This document shows, one piece after another, positions 894-28,311 of a stretch of 35,851 nt of DNA. Position numbers and translations under genes: made by a program. The DNA is from a virus: the UHGV virus genome UHGV-0135983. One strand, given 5' to 3'. The notes below the pieces were generated by a model, which searched no databases, was not told the DNA's origin, and saw only the letters and a list, made by a program, of their open reading frames with translations. Every line of letters starts with the position of its first letter. The first letter of the stretch is position 1.

Positions 894-1107
894 AGTCCTG
901 TGCCTTCCGCCGGTCGTCTTTAATTTTGAAATACAGATTAGTGAGGTAGGTAAGCAACCCGAAAACAATACTTGCCAGAACGCCTATAGCCGCCCACTGG
1001 CTGGGGCTTACCTTGTCGAGAAGTTGCAGCAGCCAGAAGCTGCCGCTTACTGTGGATGTGATGTACGACGTTCCCGCCGCCACATCCGGTAGATTCTTCA
1101 TTCGCAT
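877..1107 (-). CDS. Pinholin (S21-like class II holin) with dual-start motif
   Basis: [44 protein letters not shown] closely resembles my recollection of the S21 sequence. MRMK provides two Met starts separated by Arg, the holin/antiholin arrangement. Confidence 0.85.
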
Positions 1108-1153
1108 GCCTTACCCCTCGGGGGTTCACTGTGTAGTGAAGCGAGGGTAAGGC
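1108..1153 (-). promoter_or_regulatory. 18-bp interrupted hairpin (6+6+6 bp) whose 3' arm covers the holin SD and abuts the ATG
   Basis: Pairings are 1108-1113/1148-1153, 1115-1120/1142-1147 and 1125-1130/1135-1140, with loop GTGT. All were checked base by base. Confidence 0.5.
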
Positions 1154-1177
1154 GTTAACCAGGTCGGAATCCTGACT
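1144..1177 (-). promoter_or_regulatory. Late-promoter candidate e (dyad + N12 + TACCCT) upstream of the lysis cassette
   Basis: Minus strand reads AGTCAGGATTCCGACC-N12-TACCCT, ending 37 nt upstream of the holin ATG. Confidence 0.5.
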
Positions 1178-3321: not shown

Positions 3322-4932
3322 CTAATAATCTACGGCGACCATGTGATCGCCATCGTTTGGTTGCCAATGTTCCCGCGCCTGTGCGGTCGGAATCCCGACC
3401 AATTTACCTATACGTACCGGAGTTGAGCTGATAGCACCGGAGCCGGAGTCGATAAAGTCATCGGGCTGATTAGTCAGCGCCGGGTTAAAGTCTCGCATCT
3501 GGTCGTACATTGGGCCGTCGAGCACGTCGGTGTGCGCCCAAAGGAACCGCGACGACAGCGGCGCTTCGAAGGCATCGAGGATGCGTTTCTGTTTATTGGT
3601 CACGCTGAATTCTTCCCGGACGCCGCAACCTGTACCCTTCAACGCCTGAATCAGCAATTTGCCGGCGAAGCTGCCCGGGCCGTTCACCTCGACGCAAATC
3701 AGGGGGATCTGATACTTCAACACCAGCTCTTTAATCTGCATCACCTGACCGCCGGTGATTTTGTCGTTGTCGTCAAATTCTGCCAGTTCGCCCGTAAGCC
3801 CCTGGCAAACATGCCAGTACAGATGCCCGCGCGCGTCGGTGAAAATCAGAGAGAACGCCGAGGCGTCGGCCTTAACTTTGCCGGTGGCCACATCCCACCA
3901 GGCGACAGCACCAACAATTTGCGTCTGGCCAAGCCACATCGAACAGGAGCGGTTCGCGTATCGGATTTCAGGCTGAACGTTGTATTCTCGGATACGGTCA
4001 GGATCAAGACGAACCTCGCCAACCGGTTTACTGTGCAGCTGGTACTGACTGTCCCATTCGTTAATTGTGCGAGTCTCGCGGCGGCGCTTTGTCATTTCCT
4101 CCGGAGTGAATCTTTCCGGCCATTCACAATCGGCGTAACAGTCAACCGTGGTACCGGGAGCCTCGGCAAACTCGATACCATCATCGTTAAGACGATAATC
4201 AACACCTTCAACGAGCAGTCGCGCGCCAATGTGAATACCGACGAAAACATATTCAGGCCGGAACGGTAACGAGTAACGGCTAGCGGTAGCCTGTTTTTCC
4301 TCGATGCGAAATTCTTTGCCGAATAGTTTGATGGTCAGACAGTCGGCGCCCATAGATTCAACCTCATCGTAAAGGCTATCGTGGGTATGCGGCGTGCCGA
4401 TAAACAGCTTTCGCCCGCCGGGGACAAGAATGTGTGTCTGTTCACCCAGACGATAACGCAGCTTTTCCCGCGCCTCCGGCGTCTGGATATTCCGGGGCAC
4501 TTCTACGTCATCGTTCTGACATTCATCGGCACGGGCCGAGGTGACGTTAGAGAGGATCCCCTTTGCGTACATGCTGCCGTTACGCATATCCAGCGAGCCG
4601 TTAACCCACCATTGCTCAACGGTTCCCTGTCCGTCGGGTAGCATACCTTTGGTCAGCGGATGATTGCGTAAAACGTTCTGCGTATCGCGGCTGGTTTTGT
4701 ACGCGGTGCCGTCAGCTTCAGACTGGTGAAGAATGCGGTACTGGCGGTTCTGGTAATATCGCCATGCGTTATACACCGCCAGAATGGTGGATTTTCCGAA
4801 GCCACGGAAACAGCGAAGCACCGCGAGATCCCCGCGGTGTTCCAGCCAGTGGCAGGCTCGATAATGGCAGTCGGGAACCTCCCACCCCATCCGCTCCGCC
4901 CATATGATGAAAAAGGCGACGAATGAAATCAT
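3322..4932 (-). CDS. Terminase large subunit
   Basis: Walker A-like motif CFRGFGKST is present. Size and position (after the small subunit, with an ATGA overlap at 4929-4932) fit. The C-terminal half looks nuclease-like. Confidence 0.85.
   Translation of the reverse strand: MISFVAFFIIWAERMGWEVPDCHYRACHWLEHRGDLAVLRCFRGFGKSTILAVYNAWRYYQNRQYRILHQSEADGTAYKTSRDTQNVLRNHPLTKGMLPDGQGTVEQWWVNGSLDMRNGSMYAKGILSNVTSARADECQNDDVEVPRNIQTPEAREKLRYRLGEQTHILVPGGRKLFIGTPHTHDSLYDEVESMGADCLTIKLFGKEFRIEEKQATASRYSLPFRPEYVFVGIHIGARLLVEGVDYRLNDDGIEFAEAPGTTVDCYADCEWPERFTPEEMTKRRRETRTINEWDSQYQLHSKPVGEVRLDPDRIREYNVQPEIRYANRSCSMWLGQTQIVGAVAWWDVATGKVKADASAFSLIFTDARGHLYWHVCQGLTGELAEFDDNDKITGGQVMQIKELVLKYQIPLICVEVNGPGSFAGKLLIQALKGTGCGVREEFSVTNKQKRILDAFEAPLSSRFLWAHTDVLDGPMYDQMRDFNPALTNQPDDFIDSGSGAISSTPVRIGKLVGIPTAQAREHWQPNDGDHMVAVDY
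3367..3400 (-). promoter_or_regulatory. Late-promoter candidate d, inside the terminase 3' coding region, upstream of the tail fibre
   Basis: Minus strand reads GGTCGGGATTCCGACC-N12-GAACAT, ending 63 nt upstream of the fibre ATG. Confidence 0.45.
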
Positions 4933-5270
4933 TTTTTCCGCTGTTGTATGCGTTCGATAACTTCCTGTGCTGCACGTTCAGCGGCAGATACCTGTTGGCC
5001 CAGGCGGAATGCTTCATCGTCCGGATCCTCGCCGGGTTTAGGCGTTCCCCCGCGCGTATGCATGCCAATCAGCGAATGGACTTTTACCAGCAGGGTTAGC
5101 GATGCGGCCGCATTCTTCTTATGCCAGTACCGATCGCCGCGTTCCTGTTTGGTGTGCTTTGTGACTTCCTTCCCTGCCCCCGGCCAGTTATCCGGATCGG
5201 CTTCTTCAAGAACTACATCGGTGAGCTTATCGCTAAGAGCGGTCAGGCGGGTTTTGTAATCTGAATGCAT
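4929..5270 (-). CDS. Putative terminase small subunit
   Basis: This is a 113-aa charged protein translationally coupled to the large terminase. The assignment rests on position only. Confidence 0.5.
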   Translation of the reverse strand: MHSDYKTRLTALSDKLTDVVLEEADPDNWPGAGKEVTKHTKQERGDRYWHKKNAAASLTLLVKVHSLIGMHTRGGTPKPGEDPDDEAFRLGQQVSAAERAAQEVIERIQQRKK

Positions 5271-5299
5271 AAAAAAGCCCCGTGGTTATCCATAGGGCT
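5271..5299 (-). terminator. Intrinsic terminator-like hairpin plus U6 immediately upstream of the small-terminase ATG
   Basis: Minus-strand RNA is AGCCCU (5299-5294), a 12-nt loop, GGGGCU (5281-5276), then UUUUU and AUG. The stem has 5 Watson-Crick pairs plus one G.U pair. Confidence 0.45.
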
Positions 5300-5333
5300 A
5301 TAATGTGCCGGGCTAGAGGTCGGAATCCTGACT
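5300..5333 (-). promoter_or_regulatory. Late-promoter candidate c upstream of the terminase genes
   Basis: Minus strand reads AGTCAGGATTCCGACC-N12-CATTAT, ending 30 nt upstream of the ATG at 5270. Confidence 0.5.
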
Positions 5334-5404
5334 ATTGCATATGCAGCGATGTACGTATAAAACTAGCCGACATTAATATAATCATTTTCATTCAGAGGCT
5401 CCCT

Positions 5405-5842
5405 GTGAAAACTTTATTCCCCTTAATACTGTTTATCGTAACTTCTACCGTTTGCGCCAAAGAAGTTAAATATGACTTTCCTCCAGATGGGGAAATGGCA
5501 AAATCACTCAAACCAGAAATTGTTGGCGTGGCTAATTATGAAATGGTCAATAGAAGCGTGCGCTTAAAAGCTTTAGATGTTGGTGAAAAAAATGTTTCTC
5601 TCCTGGTAGTCATAGGTGCTACCGACACCAGAAAACCCGTTACTCAAGCTAACATCCCTGACAAACAATCAATCTCATTAACTAAACAGCAAATTGTGAA
5701 CAAATATTGTGCACCATTCGGGTATGGCAATTGGTACTTTGATGCCTTCAAACAGCGGGGTGTAAAACTGCACTATTACTTTTACTCGGCAGTAGACACC
5801 CCGTTATTTACATTCACGGTAAATAAATCTGATTGCGATTAA
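5405..5842 (+). CDS. Secreted (periplasmic) moron protein of unknown function
   Basis: GTG at 5405 lies 6 nt after GAGG. The signal peptide is VKTLFPLILFIVTSTVCA|KE, and there are two Cys in the mature part. The gene is AT-rich, opposite in orientation to all neighbours, and its stop overlaps the convergent gene. A possible promoter is TTGCAT (5335) with TATAAA (5356). Confidence 0.6.
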   Translation: MKTLFPLILFIVTSTVCAKEVKYDFPPDGEMAKSLKPEIVGVANYEMVNRSVRLKALDVGEKNVSLLVVIGATDTRKPVTQANIPDKQSISLTKQQIVNKYCAPFGYGNWYFDAFKQRGVKLHYYFYSAVDTPLFTFTVNKSDCD

Positions 5843-8733
5843 CGCATACCGGGATCGACCTGGTTAATCAGCGGCGCAATCCAGAACAGATTATTACCGG
5901 GTAACAGCGTACGCACGTTATGCAGCACACGGTCGCCGGCGTCGCCATTCAGCACGCCGGCGGTTACATCTGTAACGGTATCCAGCAGGCCAAAGGTTGG
6001 CCCCAGAGCAGAACCGATAAAGCCGCGGCTGGCGTAACGGGACTGCGTACCGGTGCCGAGCAATGGCCCTAGCCCTACCATCCCGCCGGATGCCTTTTCA
6101 GCCATGTTGTTATATTCCATCAGTGGACCGAGGATACCAGAACGGTCGATGCCCTCGAGAACCATCTTCTGCGGGGTCAAATCAACTTCCCGGCCATTAG
6201 CCGCCTGCTTAAGCGCATAGGTCAAAGAGCCCAGGCCAATCTGGAAGGCGGTGCCGTAATAGAACTGCGCGGTACCTTCCTGCAGGCCGCCGAGCGTTGC
6301 GCGATTATAGGATGCCGTAGCAAAAGACTTAAACTGGAATACGGTTTTCCCCAGCGGGGTACTAGCCCACAGCGGCGTATCACCGATCCCCGGCGTGATA
6401 ACTGTATTGTTTACGTCTTTCAGTACCGCGGATTGCAGCAAACCGGCGGCGTACTGGTCATCCCATTTTTCGAAATTGCCGATATGCCAACCCTGAATAA
6501 CTTCGCCGTGCTTCTGAAATTCTCGCTGGATGCGTTCGGCCATCTTCTCATTGATGCCGAGTTTTGCCAGGCGCTTCGCAGGGAACGCGCCGGACAGAAT
6601 ACCGTCGGACGTGATCATGCCATTCACCGATTTGTTCATATCGTCAAAGTGGCCCATCATGGTCAACTTGCCGAACACATCGGTAATACGTTCCATGCCA
6701 GCTTCTGCAGCTGTCGTACGTGAAGAGCTATCGACCAGATCCCCCATCGTACGCGCGCGGGTATGCAGTATGGTTTCAAGTCCAACGGCCATTTTCTTCT
6801 GATCCGCCCGGCTGGCGAGGTAAGCCGGCGAGCGGGTAATCAGTGCGCCATATCCACGCATGGTATTGCTGAAGCCGTTAACCATCATGCCGCGCGCCAG
6901 ATCCGGGATAGCGGATACCGTCATGCCACCGAGTTTTGTTACAAAGTTGGCGCTACGCAGGAAAGCACCGGCGCGGACGAAAAATGATGATGGGTCATCC
7001 GGCATACCGTAGGTACCAACGAGGCGATCGCGGAGCGCCAGAATATCGCGCAGGTCGGCTTCGCGCGCCTTCGCCAGCTTTTCCTGTTCTGCCGGGCGTA
7101 AACGCATCAGCGCGTCGTATTCGTCCTGGATGGCGGCGAGCTGCGAATCCAGCGACTTATTGCCAAAGGTGCGGGTTAATTCGATTTCTGCTGAGGCTTC
7201 ACGAATATGACGCTGCAGGACGTAGTTAGCATCGCTCTCCAGATAATCTTTCATCAGGCGATCGGGAACGCTCAACGTACGCGATTTTGTGCTACCCGGC
7301 GCTTTCACCATAAAGACGTTGGCGAACTCCTGCGGAATTTTGGCCCCGACAATACGGTTGATAGTGGTATCTGCGGCAATTTCGGCATCTTCGCGGGACA
7401 TGGTTTTTTCACCGCGTGACCACCAGTCAACCAGCATGTTGCGGAATTTATCGCGCTCGCTAACGATTTTCCCTACCTTGTACACGCGTGGGAAATAGCT
7501 GGTCTGTCCCATCGCTTTCAGTTCGGCATCCGGCGGAAGTAAACCCAGTTCCTGCTGTGCCGTCTTCACACGATTGATGACCGTACGCATTGCCTGTGCC
7601 GCTTCCTGCACTTTCGCATTAACGTGCACGTCACCGTTGCGCAGCGCCTCGCCAACCTGTTCACGGAAGGCCGTATAACCCAGATCGCCGCCTTCGGCTT
7701 TGTACTGGGTGTATGCCTGCTTATTCGCAGTAACGACGGCCGCCTCTTCACGGCGCCAGCCACGTACGCGCGTCTCAGCTGCAACCGGCGTTTCAATACC
7801 GCGCAGGTTGCCTTCCAGCGTGAAGTTATTCTCTGCAAGTTCCAGCGCTGTCCGGCGCGCTTCTTTTGATGGGGATTCCATCAGGCGGGTGATCGGCGTC
7901 AGATAGCTACCGGCTTTTTTAGCCAGCTTGCCTAGTGGGCCGCCAGACACCGGTGTGAGATCATCCAGCGTAGCTTCGCGGATACGCATGGCGCCGACGC
8001 TGCCACCATTCGGTAAAGTATCCGCCAGGGCATCAGCTGCGTTGTTAATCGTTGGCGAGGCGTTCATATTATCGAGCGCCTCCGCCACTTCACGGGTGGC
8101 CGCATTTCTTACCGACGGGGTGATCATCGCGCCAGCAGTGGCAAATACACCGCTGAGAAGTGCGCCGGCAGTAATGTGTGCGGCGCTCTCCCTGGCTGTT
8201 CTGGTGTACTGCTCGTTATTGAGCGCAACCTCGCTAAGTGCGGTACCGGCAGCGCCAATAGCAACCTGAGAACCAATACGCGCAGCCAAGCTTCCCTGCG
8301 CACCAGGAATAAACATCGATGCGACCGTGACAGGGTCGATAATTCCGGCGGCGATACTAGCCAAAGTTCCTTCAGCGCCTGTTTCAGACAGCACCCGGCG
8401 GTCTTCGTTTTCATCGTCTATCTGGTTTTTAATCCAGGCGGTTTCCTCTGGGGATTTTGAATCCGCAAAGGCGGATCCCCATTGTTCGTACCCCTTTAGT
8501 TCGTTTTTATCAGAATAAGGGTTATAACCGTCCGCCGGTTCGAATTGTTTAGCCGGGCGGAACATTCCGGCCAGCAGGTTATTCTGACGAAAAGCGGCAT
8601 CCCATACAGACGGTTGCTGTTGCAGCGGTTCCGGGTTAGTTCCTTTAGGCAGAGATACATCAAAACCAGTTGGCTCCTGAAGAGCATTATCCATTACGCT
8701 TAGCGGTTCGTCAGATTGTGGGTAGAAAGGCAT
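5839..8733 (-). CDS. Large internal virion/ejection protein (T7 gp15/gp16-class)
   Basis: The protein is 964 aa, Ala/Gly-rich, coupled (TAATG) to the preceding SLT protein, and lies last in the internal-protein block. Confidence 0.6.
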   Translation of the reverse strand: MPFYPQSDEPLSVMDNALQEPTGFDVSLPKGTNPEPLQQQPSVWDAAFRQNNLLAGMFRPAKQFEPADGYNPYSDKNELKGYEQWGSAFADSKSPEETAWIKNQIDDENEDRRVLSETGAEGTLASIAAGIIDPVTVASMFIPGAQGSLAARIGSQVAIGAAGTALSEVALNNEQYTRTARESAAHITAGALLSGVFATAGAMITPSVRNAATREVAEALDNMNASPTINNAADALADTLPNGGSVGAMRIREATLDDLTPVSGGPLGKLAKKAGSYLTPITRLMESPSKEARRTALELAENNFTLEGNLRGIETPVAAETRVRGWRREEAAVVTANKQAYTQYKAEGGDLGYTAFREQVGEALRNGDVHVNAKVQEAAQAMRTVINRVKTAQQELGLLPPDAELKAMGQTSYFPRVYKVGKIVSERDKFRNMLVDWWSRGEKTMSREDAEIAADTTINRIVGAKIPQEFANVFMVKAPGSTKSRTLSVPDRLMKDYLESDANYVLQRHIREASAEIELTRTFGNKSLDSQLAAIQDEYDALMRLRPAEQEKLAKAREADLRDILALRDRLVGTYGMPDDPSSFFVRAGAFLRSANFVTKLGGMTVSAIPDLARGMMVNGFSNTMRGYGALITRSPAYLASRADQKKMAVGLETILHTRARTMGDLVDSSSRTTAAEAGMERITDVFGKLTMMGHFDDMNKSVNGMITSDGILSGAFPAKRLAKLGINEKMAERIQREFQKHGEVIQGWHIGNFEKWDDQYAAGLLQSAVLKDVNNTVITPGIGDTPLWASTPLGKTVFQFKSFATASYNRATLGGLQEGTAQFYYGTAFQIGLGSLTYALKQAANGREVDLTPQKMVLEGIDRSGILGPLMEYNNMAEKASGGMVGLGPLLGTGTQSRYASRGFIGSALGPTFGLLDTVTDVTAGVLNGDAGDRVLHNVRTLLPGNNLFWIAPLINQVDPGMR

Positions 8734-14962: not shown

Positions 14963-14992
14963 ATGAAAAAAGGCCGGGAGATATCCCCCGGC
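14963..14992 (-). terminator. Intrinsic terminator directly after the major capsid gene (T7 Tphi-like position)
   Basis: Minus strand reads GCCGGG, an 8-nt loop, CCCGGC, then CTTTTTTC. Confidence 0.6.
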
Positions 14993-15920: not shown

Positions 15921-16056
15921 AACAATCACTCCAGAAAGTATCGCCTGCGGGGTATCGGTTTCCCGGCCCAAATCAGCACAATGCGGTTGGCGCTGGCGCA
16001 TTGCGGGAAAATCAGGTATCCGGCGTCCCCGCCGGGCTGGTTGTGGAGTGATTGTT
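15921..16056 (-). promoter_or_regulatory. Long-range 13-bp perfect anti-SD/SD pairing flanking the capsid 5' leader
   Basis: 16056-16044 (AACAAUCACUCCA) is the exact complement of 15933-15921 (UGGAGUGAUUGUU). The latter contains the capsid SD and abuts the AUG. Confidence 0.5.
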
Positions 16057-16084
16057 AGCGAGGAGAGCGGTCGGAATCCCGACC
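16051..16084 (-). promoter_or_regulatory. Late-promoter candidate b upstream of the capsid gene
   Basis: Minus strand reads GGTCGGGATTCCGACC-N12-AACAAT. Confidence 0.5.
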
Positions 16085-20509: not shown

Positions 20510-20806
20510 TCATTGTGTGTTGCCCTTCTGGTCAGTTTCCCGACCAAAAACAGGGCGGCGGAACGTCCACCACTGCCGATAAAGCACTGTGGGGAGTTTT
20601 TTACGGTCTGAGCTGGTAGCCAGACACCAGAGAGCGATAAGTGCCTCACCGTGACCGTGGCGAGGTTCTGATCCGGATTTCCAACCGAGAACGGCAGATT
20701 TCGAAACGCCAAGTTCATCGGCGATTTGCTGAGTGGTGAGGTTTTTTCGTGTCAGGTCAGTAATGACTCTGAACCAGTCTGTACGGAAGGTGGCGACCAG
20801 CGGCAT
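20510..20806 (-). CDS. Small HTH DNA-binding protein, a candidate late-gene regulator
   Basis: LTTQQIADELGVSKSAVLGW is a sigma-region-4/HTH_23-like helix-turn-helix. This is the last gene before the virion module. Confidence 0.6.
   Translation of the reverse strand: MPLVATFRTDWFRVITDLTRKNLTTQQIADELGVSKSAVLGWKSGSEPRHGHGEALIALWCLATSSDRKKLPTVLYRQWWTFRRPVFGRETDQKGNTQ
20512..20545 (-). promoter_or_regulatory. Late-promoter candidate a
   Basis: Minus strand reads GGTCGGGAAACTGACC-N12-CACAAT. It lies inside the 3' end of the HTH gene, 30 nt upstream of the ATG at 20482. Confidence 0.5.
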
Positions 20807-22261: not shown

Positions 22262-22288
22262 CAAAAGAAAACCGCCATTTCTGGCGGT
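22262..22288 (-). terminator. Intrinsic terminator after gene 22315-22653
   Basis: Minus strand reads ACCGCCA, GAAA, TGGCGGT, then TTTCTTTTG. The stem is a 7-bp perfect match. Confidence 0.7.
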
Positions 22289-22314
22289 TCTGTTTTATCT
22301 GGTATGGTTGTTCG

Positions 22315-27331: not shown

Positions 27332-28311
27332 AAAGCGCCCTCCCTGGTCTTACGCAATGTCTCTGGTTTCATCAGATAGTCAAAGCTGGCGCGCCATCCG
27401 CCATTTTCACCAAAGTAAAAATCGGAGGCGTCAGCGCGGAATTTTTCGAAATAGCCCAGAAATGCGCCCGTGGTTTTGTTTTTCATATGGGCGGCCAGAC
27501 GGGTGATCATCCGGCGGCGGTCTGTGTCCAGTTCAGCAGCAGGCAGAACGTCAGCAAAAATTTCGTTGTAGCCGTTCATAACGGCTTCCGGATCAATATC
27601 GGTTTCGGTCACCGCCCATGCTTCAGCGTCAGCGAGATAACCATCAAAGCGGTTTACCCGGCAGATGTTCGCTGGCTTCGGCAGGCTATCGCCACGGCGG
27701 CGCCATGTGGCCAGCACCCAGCGGATAACTAACTGCAATTCGTCCAGGGTGTACCCTTCCCGGGTGGTGGTCGGCGTCAGCATCATCACAAACGGTTTCA
27801 GGTCACGGCAGCGGGTACCGGTTTGCTCGTTGTAAAATTCCAGCGCTTTTTTAGCATCAGAATTAATTTTTTCATCGCCTTCCCCCGTCTGGGGGTTAGG
27901 GGGATCTTTAGGTTCTATGACTGGTTCAAAAGAGTGACTGGTTCTGGTGCCGCCACACGGCATAGGGGCTATGCTTTTTGGCGGCATACCTGTGCTTTCT
28001 GACGGCATAGGGGCTATGCTTTTTGGCGGCATAGGGTTATCAAGTTTCATACAGTACAAATTCGACGCGTTACCCTTCCCGTTTTTTACGCCCGGGCGAT
28101 TTTCTTTCACCAGCAGGCCCATGGAAATTAACGCATCGATATGGTCACGCACCGCGCTTTTGCTGCACTCGCAGTGATCCGCAATATGTTTGTAAGACGG
28201 CCAGCATTCGCCGTAATCATTGGCGTTATCAGCCAGTTTGATCAGCACCAGTTTTCGAATCGGGTTTCCGGTCTTGATTGCCATTGCTTTGGCCATAAGC
28301 GTCATACTCAT
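27328..28311 (-). CDS. Replication initiator: N-terminal winged-HTH plus phage conserved C-terminal domain
   Basis: The ATG at 28311 follows the upstream stop. The N-terminus is KLVLIKLADNANDYGECWPSYKHIADHCECSKSAVRDHIDALISMGLL. An ATGA overlap links it to dnaB. Confidence 0.75.
   Translation of the reverse strand: MSMTLMAKAMAIKTGNPIRKLVLIKLADNANDYGECWPSYKHIADHCECSKSAVRDHIDALISMGLLVKENRPGVKNGKGNASNLYCMKLDNPMPPKSIAPMPSESTGMPPKSIAPMPCGGTRTSHSFEPVIEPKDPPNPQTGEGDEKINSDAKKALEFYNEQTGTRCRDLKPFVMMLTPTTTREGYTLDELQLVIRWVLATWRRRGDSLPKPANICRVNRFDGYLADAEAWAVTETDIDPEAVMNGYNEIFADVLPAAELDTDRRRMITRLAAHMKNKTTGAFLGYFEKFRADASDFYFGENGGWRASFDYLMKPETLRKTREGAL
27958..28033. repeat. Iteron-like repeats inside the initiator gene (putative ori)
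   Basis: The 31-bp unit CGGCATAGGGGCTATGCTTTTTGGCGGCATA occurs twice (27958-27988 and 28003-28033). This gives four CGGCATA cores at about 22-23 bp spacing. An AT-rich patch at about 27861-27892 lies next to them. Confidence 0.6.

Follow-up and report, generated by a model that had tools for sequence, protein, structure and literature searches.

A predicted terminator interlocked with a putative late promoter in front of the small terminase gene of a temperate phage with T7-like virion genes

On the minus strand of phage genome UHGV-0135983, a hairpin followed by a U-run ends at the start codon of the small terminase gene terS, and its 5' arm begins on the first base after the -10-like hexamer of a putative late promoter. 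The hairpin with its U-run (5299-5271) is a real structure, far beyond what chance would produce. The reading we favor, with a probability of about 0.6, is that of an intrinsic terminator that would in addition mask the Shine-Dalgarno sequence of terS, act on read-through and cargo transcripts and be bypassed by transcripts started inside it. The original prediction had proposed just such a read-through stop and restart point, fused with the promoter, and comparative evidence now supports it in every part that can be tested on sequences. Termination at the module, the start site, the identity of the activator and the late timing are what we infer from these comparisons.

The window, i.e., the whole stretch of 35,851 nt analyzed here, is the genome of a temperate phage that encodes its late genes on the minus strand. 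The genes for virion and packaging form a T7-like module of portal, head protein, tail tubular proteins A and B, internal virion proteins, terminases, tailspike and holin, while the early region is lambdoid with repressor, O/P-like replication proteins, NinB and integrase. Neither a phage RNA polymerase nor a Q- or N-like antiterminator was found among the window ORFs examined, so that late transcription must rely on the host polymerase. A near-identity DNA search of a phage collection yielded no match, and the phage was placed by protein-level search. Yersinia phages YeP4, YeP5 and YeP6 are the closest named relatives (terL about 80% identical), and near relatives are prophages of Klebsiella, Raoultella, Enterobacter, Pectobacterium, Pantoea and others. 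The comparison of regions upstream of terS covered 10 genome loci, 80 viral contigs as well as three annotated records. Apart from the late region, three to four direct repeats of 21-24 nt (ACGGCATAGGGGCTATGCTTTTTGGCGGCATA-like) within the gene for the O-like replication initiator (27957-28036) resemble origin iterons, and ACCGCCAGAAAUGGCGGU, a hairpin with a U-run on each strand that resembles a bidirectional terminator, follows the gene for a 112-aa regulator in the early region (22266-22293). The terS junction is composed of the following features, given in the direction of late transcription:

5839..8733, minus strand: last internal-virion-protein gene, 964 aa, product matching phrog_342; the same-strand transcription unit upstream of the module
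5405..5842, plus strand: opposite-strand cargo gene between the virion gene and the module, 145 aa, signal-peptide-like N-terminus
5319..5332, minus strand: imperfect dyad GTCAGGATTCCGAC at about -39 to -26, the position of a -35 element; proposed activator site
5306..5318, minus strand: conserved C and 12-nt spacer (tctagcccggca), free in sequence and fixed in length among relatives
5300..5305, minus strand: -10-like hexamer CATTAT, CATCAT in most relatives
5294..5299, minus strand: 5' arm of the lower stem, AGCCCU, identical with promoter positions -6 to -1
5291..5295, minus strand: predicted start-site range according to sigma-70 geometry, 5-9 nt past the hexamer; A5293 (7 nt) most likely
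5283..5293, minus strand: A5293 (mismatched with C5282), upper stem U5292-G5290/C5285-A5283 and AUAA tetraloop 5289-5286
5276..5282, minus strand: C5282 and 3' arm GGGGCU, containing GGGG 5281-5278
5271..5275, minus strand: U-tract, U6 together with U5276, abutting the terS AUG
4929..5270, minus strand: small terminase gene terS, 113 aa, product matching phrog_9277
3322-4932, minus strand: large terminase gene terL, 3' of terS, 80% identical to that of Yersinia phage YeP4

All coordinates that had been assigned to the core of the module, i.e., CATTAT at 5305-5300, AGCCCU at 5299-5294, GGGGCU at 5281-5276, the U-run at 5275-5271 and the AUG at 5270-5268 of the minus strand, proved correct. The two lower arms are likewise as described earlier, but the 12-nt loop between them is not open, as U5292-G5290 pair with C5285-A5283. 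The minus-strand RNA 5299-5276 thus consists of a stem of 6 bp with five G-C pairs at the hairpin base, a 1x1 mismatch, a second stem of 3 bp and the AUAA tetraloop. Six U residues, counting U5276, follow without any gap, and the terS AUG comes directly after them. A free energy of -13.2 kcal/mol was calculated for the 32-nt element, compared with -5.4 +/- 2.2 for shuffled sequences (z -3.6; 0/200 shuffles as good). A scan of the 35.8 kb for hairpins beside U-runs produced four clean candidates with -12.9 kcal/mol or less on the minus strand, one of which is this element. A scan for consensus promoters and terminators reported neither at the module, the hairpin having been missed because of its internal mismatch. 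Rfam gave no match at gathering score in the window and locally only chance-level matches to terminator-ended sRNAs. A reading of the hairpin as an RNase III site was ruled out, the stem being too short. The element combines a stable GC-rich hairpin with short loop, an abutting U-rich tract, a location 3' of a same-strand unit and a selected structure, all features of intrinsic terminators. With an internal mismatch and only 6 uninterrupted pairs in the stem of the window, termination may be partial.

The order of dyad, 12-nt spacer, hexamer, hairpin, U-run and ATG is the same in all collected terS regions. Among 60 distinct 66-nt modules, representing about 90 related prophages, all retain a hairpin of 7-10 bp (9 bp in 53 of them) with a median energy of -12.9 kcal/mol, and 5-7 U residues among the 8 nt 3' of the stem are likewise found in 60/60. 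The distance between stem and AUG amounts to 5 nt in 55 modules, 6 nt in four and 7 nt in one. The upper stem has been rebuilt by lineage with pairing kept (UGG/CCA, GUA/UAC, AUG/CAU, UCUUCA/UGAAGA). When 28 distinct hairpins were aligned, the paired cells amounted to 91.7%, compared with 27-62% when partners are slid by 1-3 columns, two-sided compensatory changes occur in 5/9 pairs, and the observed covariation score was not matched by any shuffle. RNAalifold independently recovers the lower stem. U-G pairs are frequent and would turn into A/C mismatches on the opposite strand, so that the species that folds is the terS-sense RNA.

The arrangement extends to Acinetobacter phage TPWB-05 and Alcaligenes phage Piluca, the terL of which is only 46% identical. 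Here, a hairpin and U6 abut the terS AUG as well, although the hairpins are AU-rich, unrelated in sequence and carry GAGG in their 3' arm; no hairpin with U6 abuts the terS AUG of Escherichia phage vB_EcoM_APEC. Hairpins with U-runs at late-gene start codons of TPWB-05 and Piluca suggest that the design may be old and may have been refitted to new promoter specificities. Both phages also contain a different, CA-rich repeated motif, ACCCAACAAACCAAAC-like (L096 119-180, 3617-3680 and 8588-8640; L095 1-67 and 4850-4891), located 5-8 nt upstream of a hairpin with U-run before several late genes, two of these abutting a start codon. A/T-rich -10-like hexamers are present in the hairpin tops, such that start sites may also fall within those hairpins.

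The promoter half of the module is a member of a repeated element. The dyad GTCRGGAWWCYGAC, followed by 13 nt and a hexamer nAnnnT, occurs in five copies in the window as opposed to 0 expected; all five are on the minus strand, sense to the late genes, and each precedes a late unit. Even the dyad alone has five window copies, all on the minus strand, where 0.08 would be expected. Besides the terS copy, these are:

20512..20544, minus strand: late-promoter copy 1, hexamer CACAAT, before the first late gene; kept in YeP4
16051..16083, minus strand: late-promoter copy 2, hexamer AACAAT, before the major head protein gene
3367..3399, minus strand: late-promoter copy 4, hexamer GAACAT, inside the 3' end of terL, before the tailspike gene
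1144..1176, minus strand: late-promoter copy 5, hexamer TACCCT, before the holin gene; hexamer within the 5' arm of a stem

Positions A2 (-11) and T6 (-7) of the hexamer are kept in all five window copies and, like the dyad, are invariant in all distinct terS, tailspike and holin copies listed from relatives; the terS dyad is kept at the same position in 91 related loci. An invariant dyad, an invariant A2 and T6 and a spacer that is fixed in length but free in sequence form the pattern expected of a promoter read by a protein. Within each genome across the 91 loci, the terS and tailspike sites, which are 1.9 kb apart, vary together in the center of the dyad (ATT, AAA or ATC), which points to a common reader encoded in the genome. 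No TTGACA-like -35 hexamer is present at 16-18 bp from the terS hexamer, its place being occupied by the dyad, and the hexamer itself matches TATAAT at 4/6 positions, so that the promoter should need an activator. The five elements would constitute an undescribed class of late promoters made up of a dyad and a weak -10, with motif recurrence as the one line of evidence that points to promoter function. A literature search returned nothing relevant on the dyad sequence or on overlaps of promoters with terminators, and papers on APSE and LUZ100 had no bearing on the module.

Several other interpretations of these elements were considered and rejected. The dyad was not retained as a nut/boxB-type RNA stem, as its positions 4 and 11 are A/C in most terS copies and all four R/Y combinations occur, just as expected for independent DNA half-sites. 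GGCAC...GC does not qualify as a sigma-54 motif, since its spacing deviates by one and relatives have not conserved it. The dyad was also considered as a tRNA-like element, but a search returned no tRNA, and its loop is 4 nt long instead of 7. Close to promoter copy 1, on its upstream side, a hairpin is followed by U5; it was dismissed as a terminator, given its location within a coding region and its absence from YeP4. The leader of the head gene folds no better than shuffled sequences (z 0.3).

Could the hairpin be a plain, partial terminator that lowers the dosage of terminase relative to the virion genes, with dyad and hexamer serving as an operator or another protein site instead of a promoter? 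Terminase is needed in small amounts, the hexamer is weak, a -35 is lacking and the consensus scan listed no promoter, all of which would fit. However, the same dyad-N13-nAnnnT arrangement precedes four other late genes without a terminator, A2 and T6 are invariant in all distinct copies listed, and the location of the holin hexamer inside a stem arm is meaningful only with transcripts starting 3' of it. We therefore regard a mere dosage function as decidedly unlikely.

A candidate for the protein that reads the dyad is encoded immediately ahead of the late region:

20510..20806, minus strand: helix-turn-helix (HTH) protein, 98 aa, candidate reader of the dyad

Its gene is the last one before the late genes both in the window and in YeP4, the replication module of which differs from that of the window, and homologs in the phage collection are present only in phages sharing this terminase. 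The predicted fold is XRE/Cro-like (model pLDDT 75) with weak fold matches (E 0.02-0.2), the nearest folds including P22 c2, C.BclI, C.Kpn2I and C.AhdI. Pfam, NCBIfam and PDB sequence searches returned nothing above threshold for this protein or for the 112-aa regulator from the early region; the latter is not favored as activator because it is widespread in unrelated phages. On the basis of gene position, distribution and modeled fold, the 98-aa HTH protein is probably the best candidate for the activator. The first late promoter (20512-20544) is situated inside the 3' end of its gene, where the dyad encodes the C-terminal residues FGRETDQ; shorter homologs occur without this tail, and the YeP4 promoter is located between genes.

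The putative promoter and the hairpin are interlocked. The stem starts on the first base after the hexamer in 60/60 distinct modules, which bears out the earlier placement of the 5' arm directly downstream of CATTAT and upstream of the predicted +1 at about 5293. Any start 5-9 nt past the hexamer would remove the lower stem, and a terS start site inside the DNA of the hairpin is thus predicted by a geometry that fits 60/60 modules. RNAs modeled from the predicted starts 5295, 5293 and 5291 are without the terminator stem, in agreement with the expectation that transcripts from this promoter cannot form it, while modeled RNAs that start further upstream form the hairpin and leave the GGGG unpaired with a probability of 0.00-0.04. 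Apart from this GGGG (5281-5278), located 7 nt before the AUG, terS has no Shine-Dalgarno-like run; the AUG itself lies outside the stem. Relatives have GAGG in its place, and in the Piluca record the GAGG within the arm is annotated as ribosome-binding site. With the sole Shine-Dalgarno-like run in the 3' arm, the hairpin would also block translation of read-through RNA. In RNA started at the promoter, a weak pairing of the GGGG with CCCG further downstream is predicted, so that a free Shine-Dalgarno sequence is meant in relative terms.

Taken together, we propose the following sequence of events. A polymerase that comes in from upstream, having transcribed the tail and internal-virion operon or, as in many relatives, cargo genes on the same strand, would transcribe both arms and the U6 and would terminate at about 5271-5275, just before the terS AUG. 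RNA that escapes termination would keep the hairpin, with GGGG buried in the 3' arm. In the lytic cycle, an activator encoded by the phage (probably the HTH protein of 98 aa) would bind the dyad in replacement of a -35 element and recruit host RNA polymerase to the weak -10-like hexamer, and transcription would start at about A5293, inside the hairpin-coding DNA. The resulting RNAs would not contain the 5' arm and would escape termination, and their Shine-Dalgarno run and U-rich leader would be exposed. If RNA from upstream is stopped or silenced and locally started RNA is free, expression of terminase would depend only on the local late promoter, whatever happens upstream. Terminating polymerases still cross the promoter and, accordingly, the arrangement does not prevent promoter occlusion.

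The position of the start site is decisive for this scheme. Were it upstream of 5299, the hairpin would be part of every terS mRNA and might act as 5' stabilizer or as an attenuator overcome by antitermination. Hairpins at 5' ends do stabilize mRNAs, and the position of the terS start site is a predicted one. Such a start would, on the other hand, be located 5' of the -10-like hexamer, a non-standard geometry; a Q- or N-like protein was not found among the window ORFs examined, and the dyad does not resemble an RNA stem, with 4/11 being A/C in most copies and half-sites varying independently. All in all, a start upstream of the hairpin appears very unlikely.

A second junction bears on the role of the U-run. 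In front of the holin gene (1107-1176, minus strand), the hexamer TACCCT is situated inside the 5' arm gCCUUACCCUCG, which pairs with the Shine-Dalgarno region of the holin gene, CGAGGGGUAAGGc, with an energy of -24.3 kcal/mol (z -3.6). A total of 19 relatives retain this pairing, and a U-run is absent. As the -10 itself is part of the arm, RNA started at this promoter would lack the arm wherever the start falls. The earlier remark that promoter cores in the window double as structural arms, with the terS module counted as the third instance, therefore holds for at least two of the five promoters, terS and holin.

The holin stem is also central when it comes to the possibility that the terS hairpin is a translational block only, of the kind known for T4 gene e, with the U-run serving as A/U-rich spacer or enhancer and causing little or no termination. 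The 3' arm does hold the sole Shine-Dalgarno-like run, a promoter-overlapping stem without U-run is found in the same phage, and the T4 precedent is purely translational (PMC3014915). Yet, U5-7 after the GC-rich stem is kept in 60/60 modules as well as in distant lineages, and most same-strand cargo ORFs are without any other terminator. Furthermore, the holin hairpin demonstrates that a Shine-Dalgarno sequence can be hidden without a U-run, which argues that the U-run at terS has been selected for termination. We consider a purely translational function rather unlikely and continue with the hairpin as a terminator that in addition sequesters the Shine-Dalgarno run.

The surroundings of the module indicate which transcripts the terminator would encounter. 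In 13 distinct layouts, the 65-nt module makes up the entire gap between the last internal-virion gene and terS; in these cargo-less layouts the stop codon of the virion gene is followed by TC and then by the dyad. Read-through transcripts would meet the hairpin directly in this case, and the earlier proposal that it stops transcripts from the internal-virion genes is supported by these relatives, in which the module would directly follow the last virion gene on its predicted transcript. Another 24 layouts, including that of the window, carry an opposite-strand ORF between virion-gene stop codon and dyad, whereas in 22 layouts one to three same-strand ORFs have been inserted at this place. The last stop codon of same-strand cargo is mostly 0-16 nt away from the dyad, in a few cases up to 142 nt. 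Most same-strand cargo ORFs thus end no more than about 16 nt from the dyad, which leaves no room for a terminator of their own, and the terS hairpin is the only one they could use. In the window, about 570 nt of untranslated RNA antisense to the cargo gene precede the hairpin, and Rho could stop much of the read-through earlier. Further upstream, a clean terminator, CCGGGGGAUAUCUCCCGG with a U-run, is found on the minus strand right after the head gene (14964-14991; -17.3 kcal/mol for the 41-nt scan segment). No late-promoter dyad is present between this terminator and 5332, so that the tail and internal-virion genes would depend on read-through.

Cargo insertion has a hot spot (window 5333-5838; L001-L093) that is bounded exactly by the stop codon at the end of the last internal-virion gene on one side and by the dyad on the other. 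For the 145-aa cargo protein of the window, searches gave no family match; its gene has a TATAAT of its own at 5377-5382 of the plus strand. A second perfect TATAAT (TATGAT in most relatives) is found on the plus strand at 5299-5304, opposite the late-promoter hexamer, and could drive divergent or antisense transcription in the direction of the cargo gene; we regard it as a by-product. That CATCATA is in fact the -10 of a plus-strand promoter for cargo or antisense RNA, or that the hairpin is a signal at the DNA level such as a packaging site, strikes us as extremely improbable. The first of these ideas draws on the perfect match in the window, but cargo-less layouts have no plus-strand gene to express, the cargo gene of the window has its own TATAAT, and the other four hexamers give no plus-strand -10. 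The second draws on the fact that the module adjoins terS and that the packaging site of some other phages lies within or near the small terminase gene; against it, the U-G pairs argue for pairing of RNA, not DNA.

Returning to the terminator that is bypassed from within, its consequence would be that the terminase is shielded from cargo transcription in the lysogen. We tentatively propose, at somewhat less than even odds, that the 65-nt cassette of activator dyad, weak -10 and Shine-Dalgarno-hiding terminator is an insulator that defines the hot spot. By canceling incoming transcription and translation and restarting at a promoter of its own, it could have allowed the lineage to accept diverse cargo in either orientation without deregulating terminase. 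The same insulation, in a version lacking the U-run, would hold upstream of holin. If the reading as a terminator fused to a late promoter is confirmed, it would explain how terminase and holin stay silent beside actively transcribed prophage cargo genes, and would provide a compact natural part of 65 nt that insulates a gene from upstream transcription. It would also define an undescribed class of late promoters together with a candidate activator for T7-like prophages without their own RNA polymerase, a group common in Klebsiella, Raoultella, Enterobacter and related genera. In addition, the T4 principle of a promoter in an inhibitory hairpin would be extended to a true terminator, a different promoter class and a temperate lineage.

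With regard to known systems, the terS element resembles intrinsic terminators in its GC-rich stem of 7-10 bp, its short loop and a U-run that abuts the stem. A stop with a subsequent restart inside the late gene block is reminiscent of T7, in which the terminator T-phi is located directly after the head gene, as is the terminator at 14964-14991 in the window, and is followed by downstream promoters. Unlike in the T-phi arrangement, terminator and restart promoter share six base pairs at terS and the U-tract abuts the start codon. A small XRE-type HTH candidate and a 14-bp dyad in place of the -35 recall the C-proteins of restriction-modification systems and lambda cI at PRM, with the dyad center, at about -32.5, being closer to the -10 than in those systems. 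Variable genes in either orientation at one precise junction of the late region are typical of temperate-phage morons. Morons classically have their own promoter and terminator each, while most same-strand cargo ORFs described here would borrow the resident terS terminator.

The closest parallel is provided by T4. According to two reports, long early transcripts of the T4 genes e, soc, 49 and I-TevI fold a hairpin over the ribosome-binding site and are silenced, late promoters located in the DNA encoding the 5' strand of the hairpin yield translatable RNAs, and the same type of control also applies to segB, Aeh1 mobE and several homing endonuclease genes (PMC3014915; PMC2988022). Just as in e, soc, 49 and I-TevI, the late promoter at terS would lie in the DNA of the 5' strand, transcripts from upstream would carry the hairpin and late RNAs would start inside it, and in both cases the genes protected have potentially harmful late functions. 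There are also clear differences. The T4 hairpin acts on translation only (PMC3014915), whereas the terS hairpin also bears a U-tract and has the form of a canonical intrinsic terminator. T4 late promoters consist of the gp55-dependent sequence TATAAATA, read by gp55/gp33; the terS promoter is not of this type and instead combines a CATTAT/CATCAT hexamer, as a weak -10, with an upstream dyad, for use by the host polymerase. It follows that the terS module is an analogue and not a member of the T4 system. In contrast to T4, the phage is temperate with T7-like virion genes, and the transcripts to be silenced would include those of prophage cargo. The principle as such is already known from T4; what the present comparison would add is a true terminator, a different promoter class and a temperate phage.
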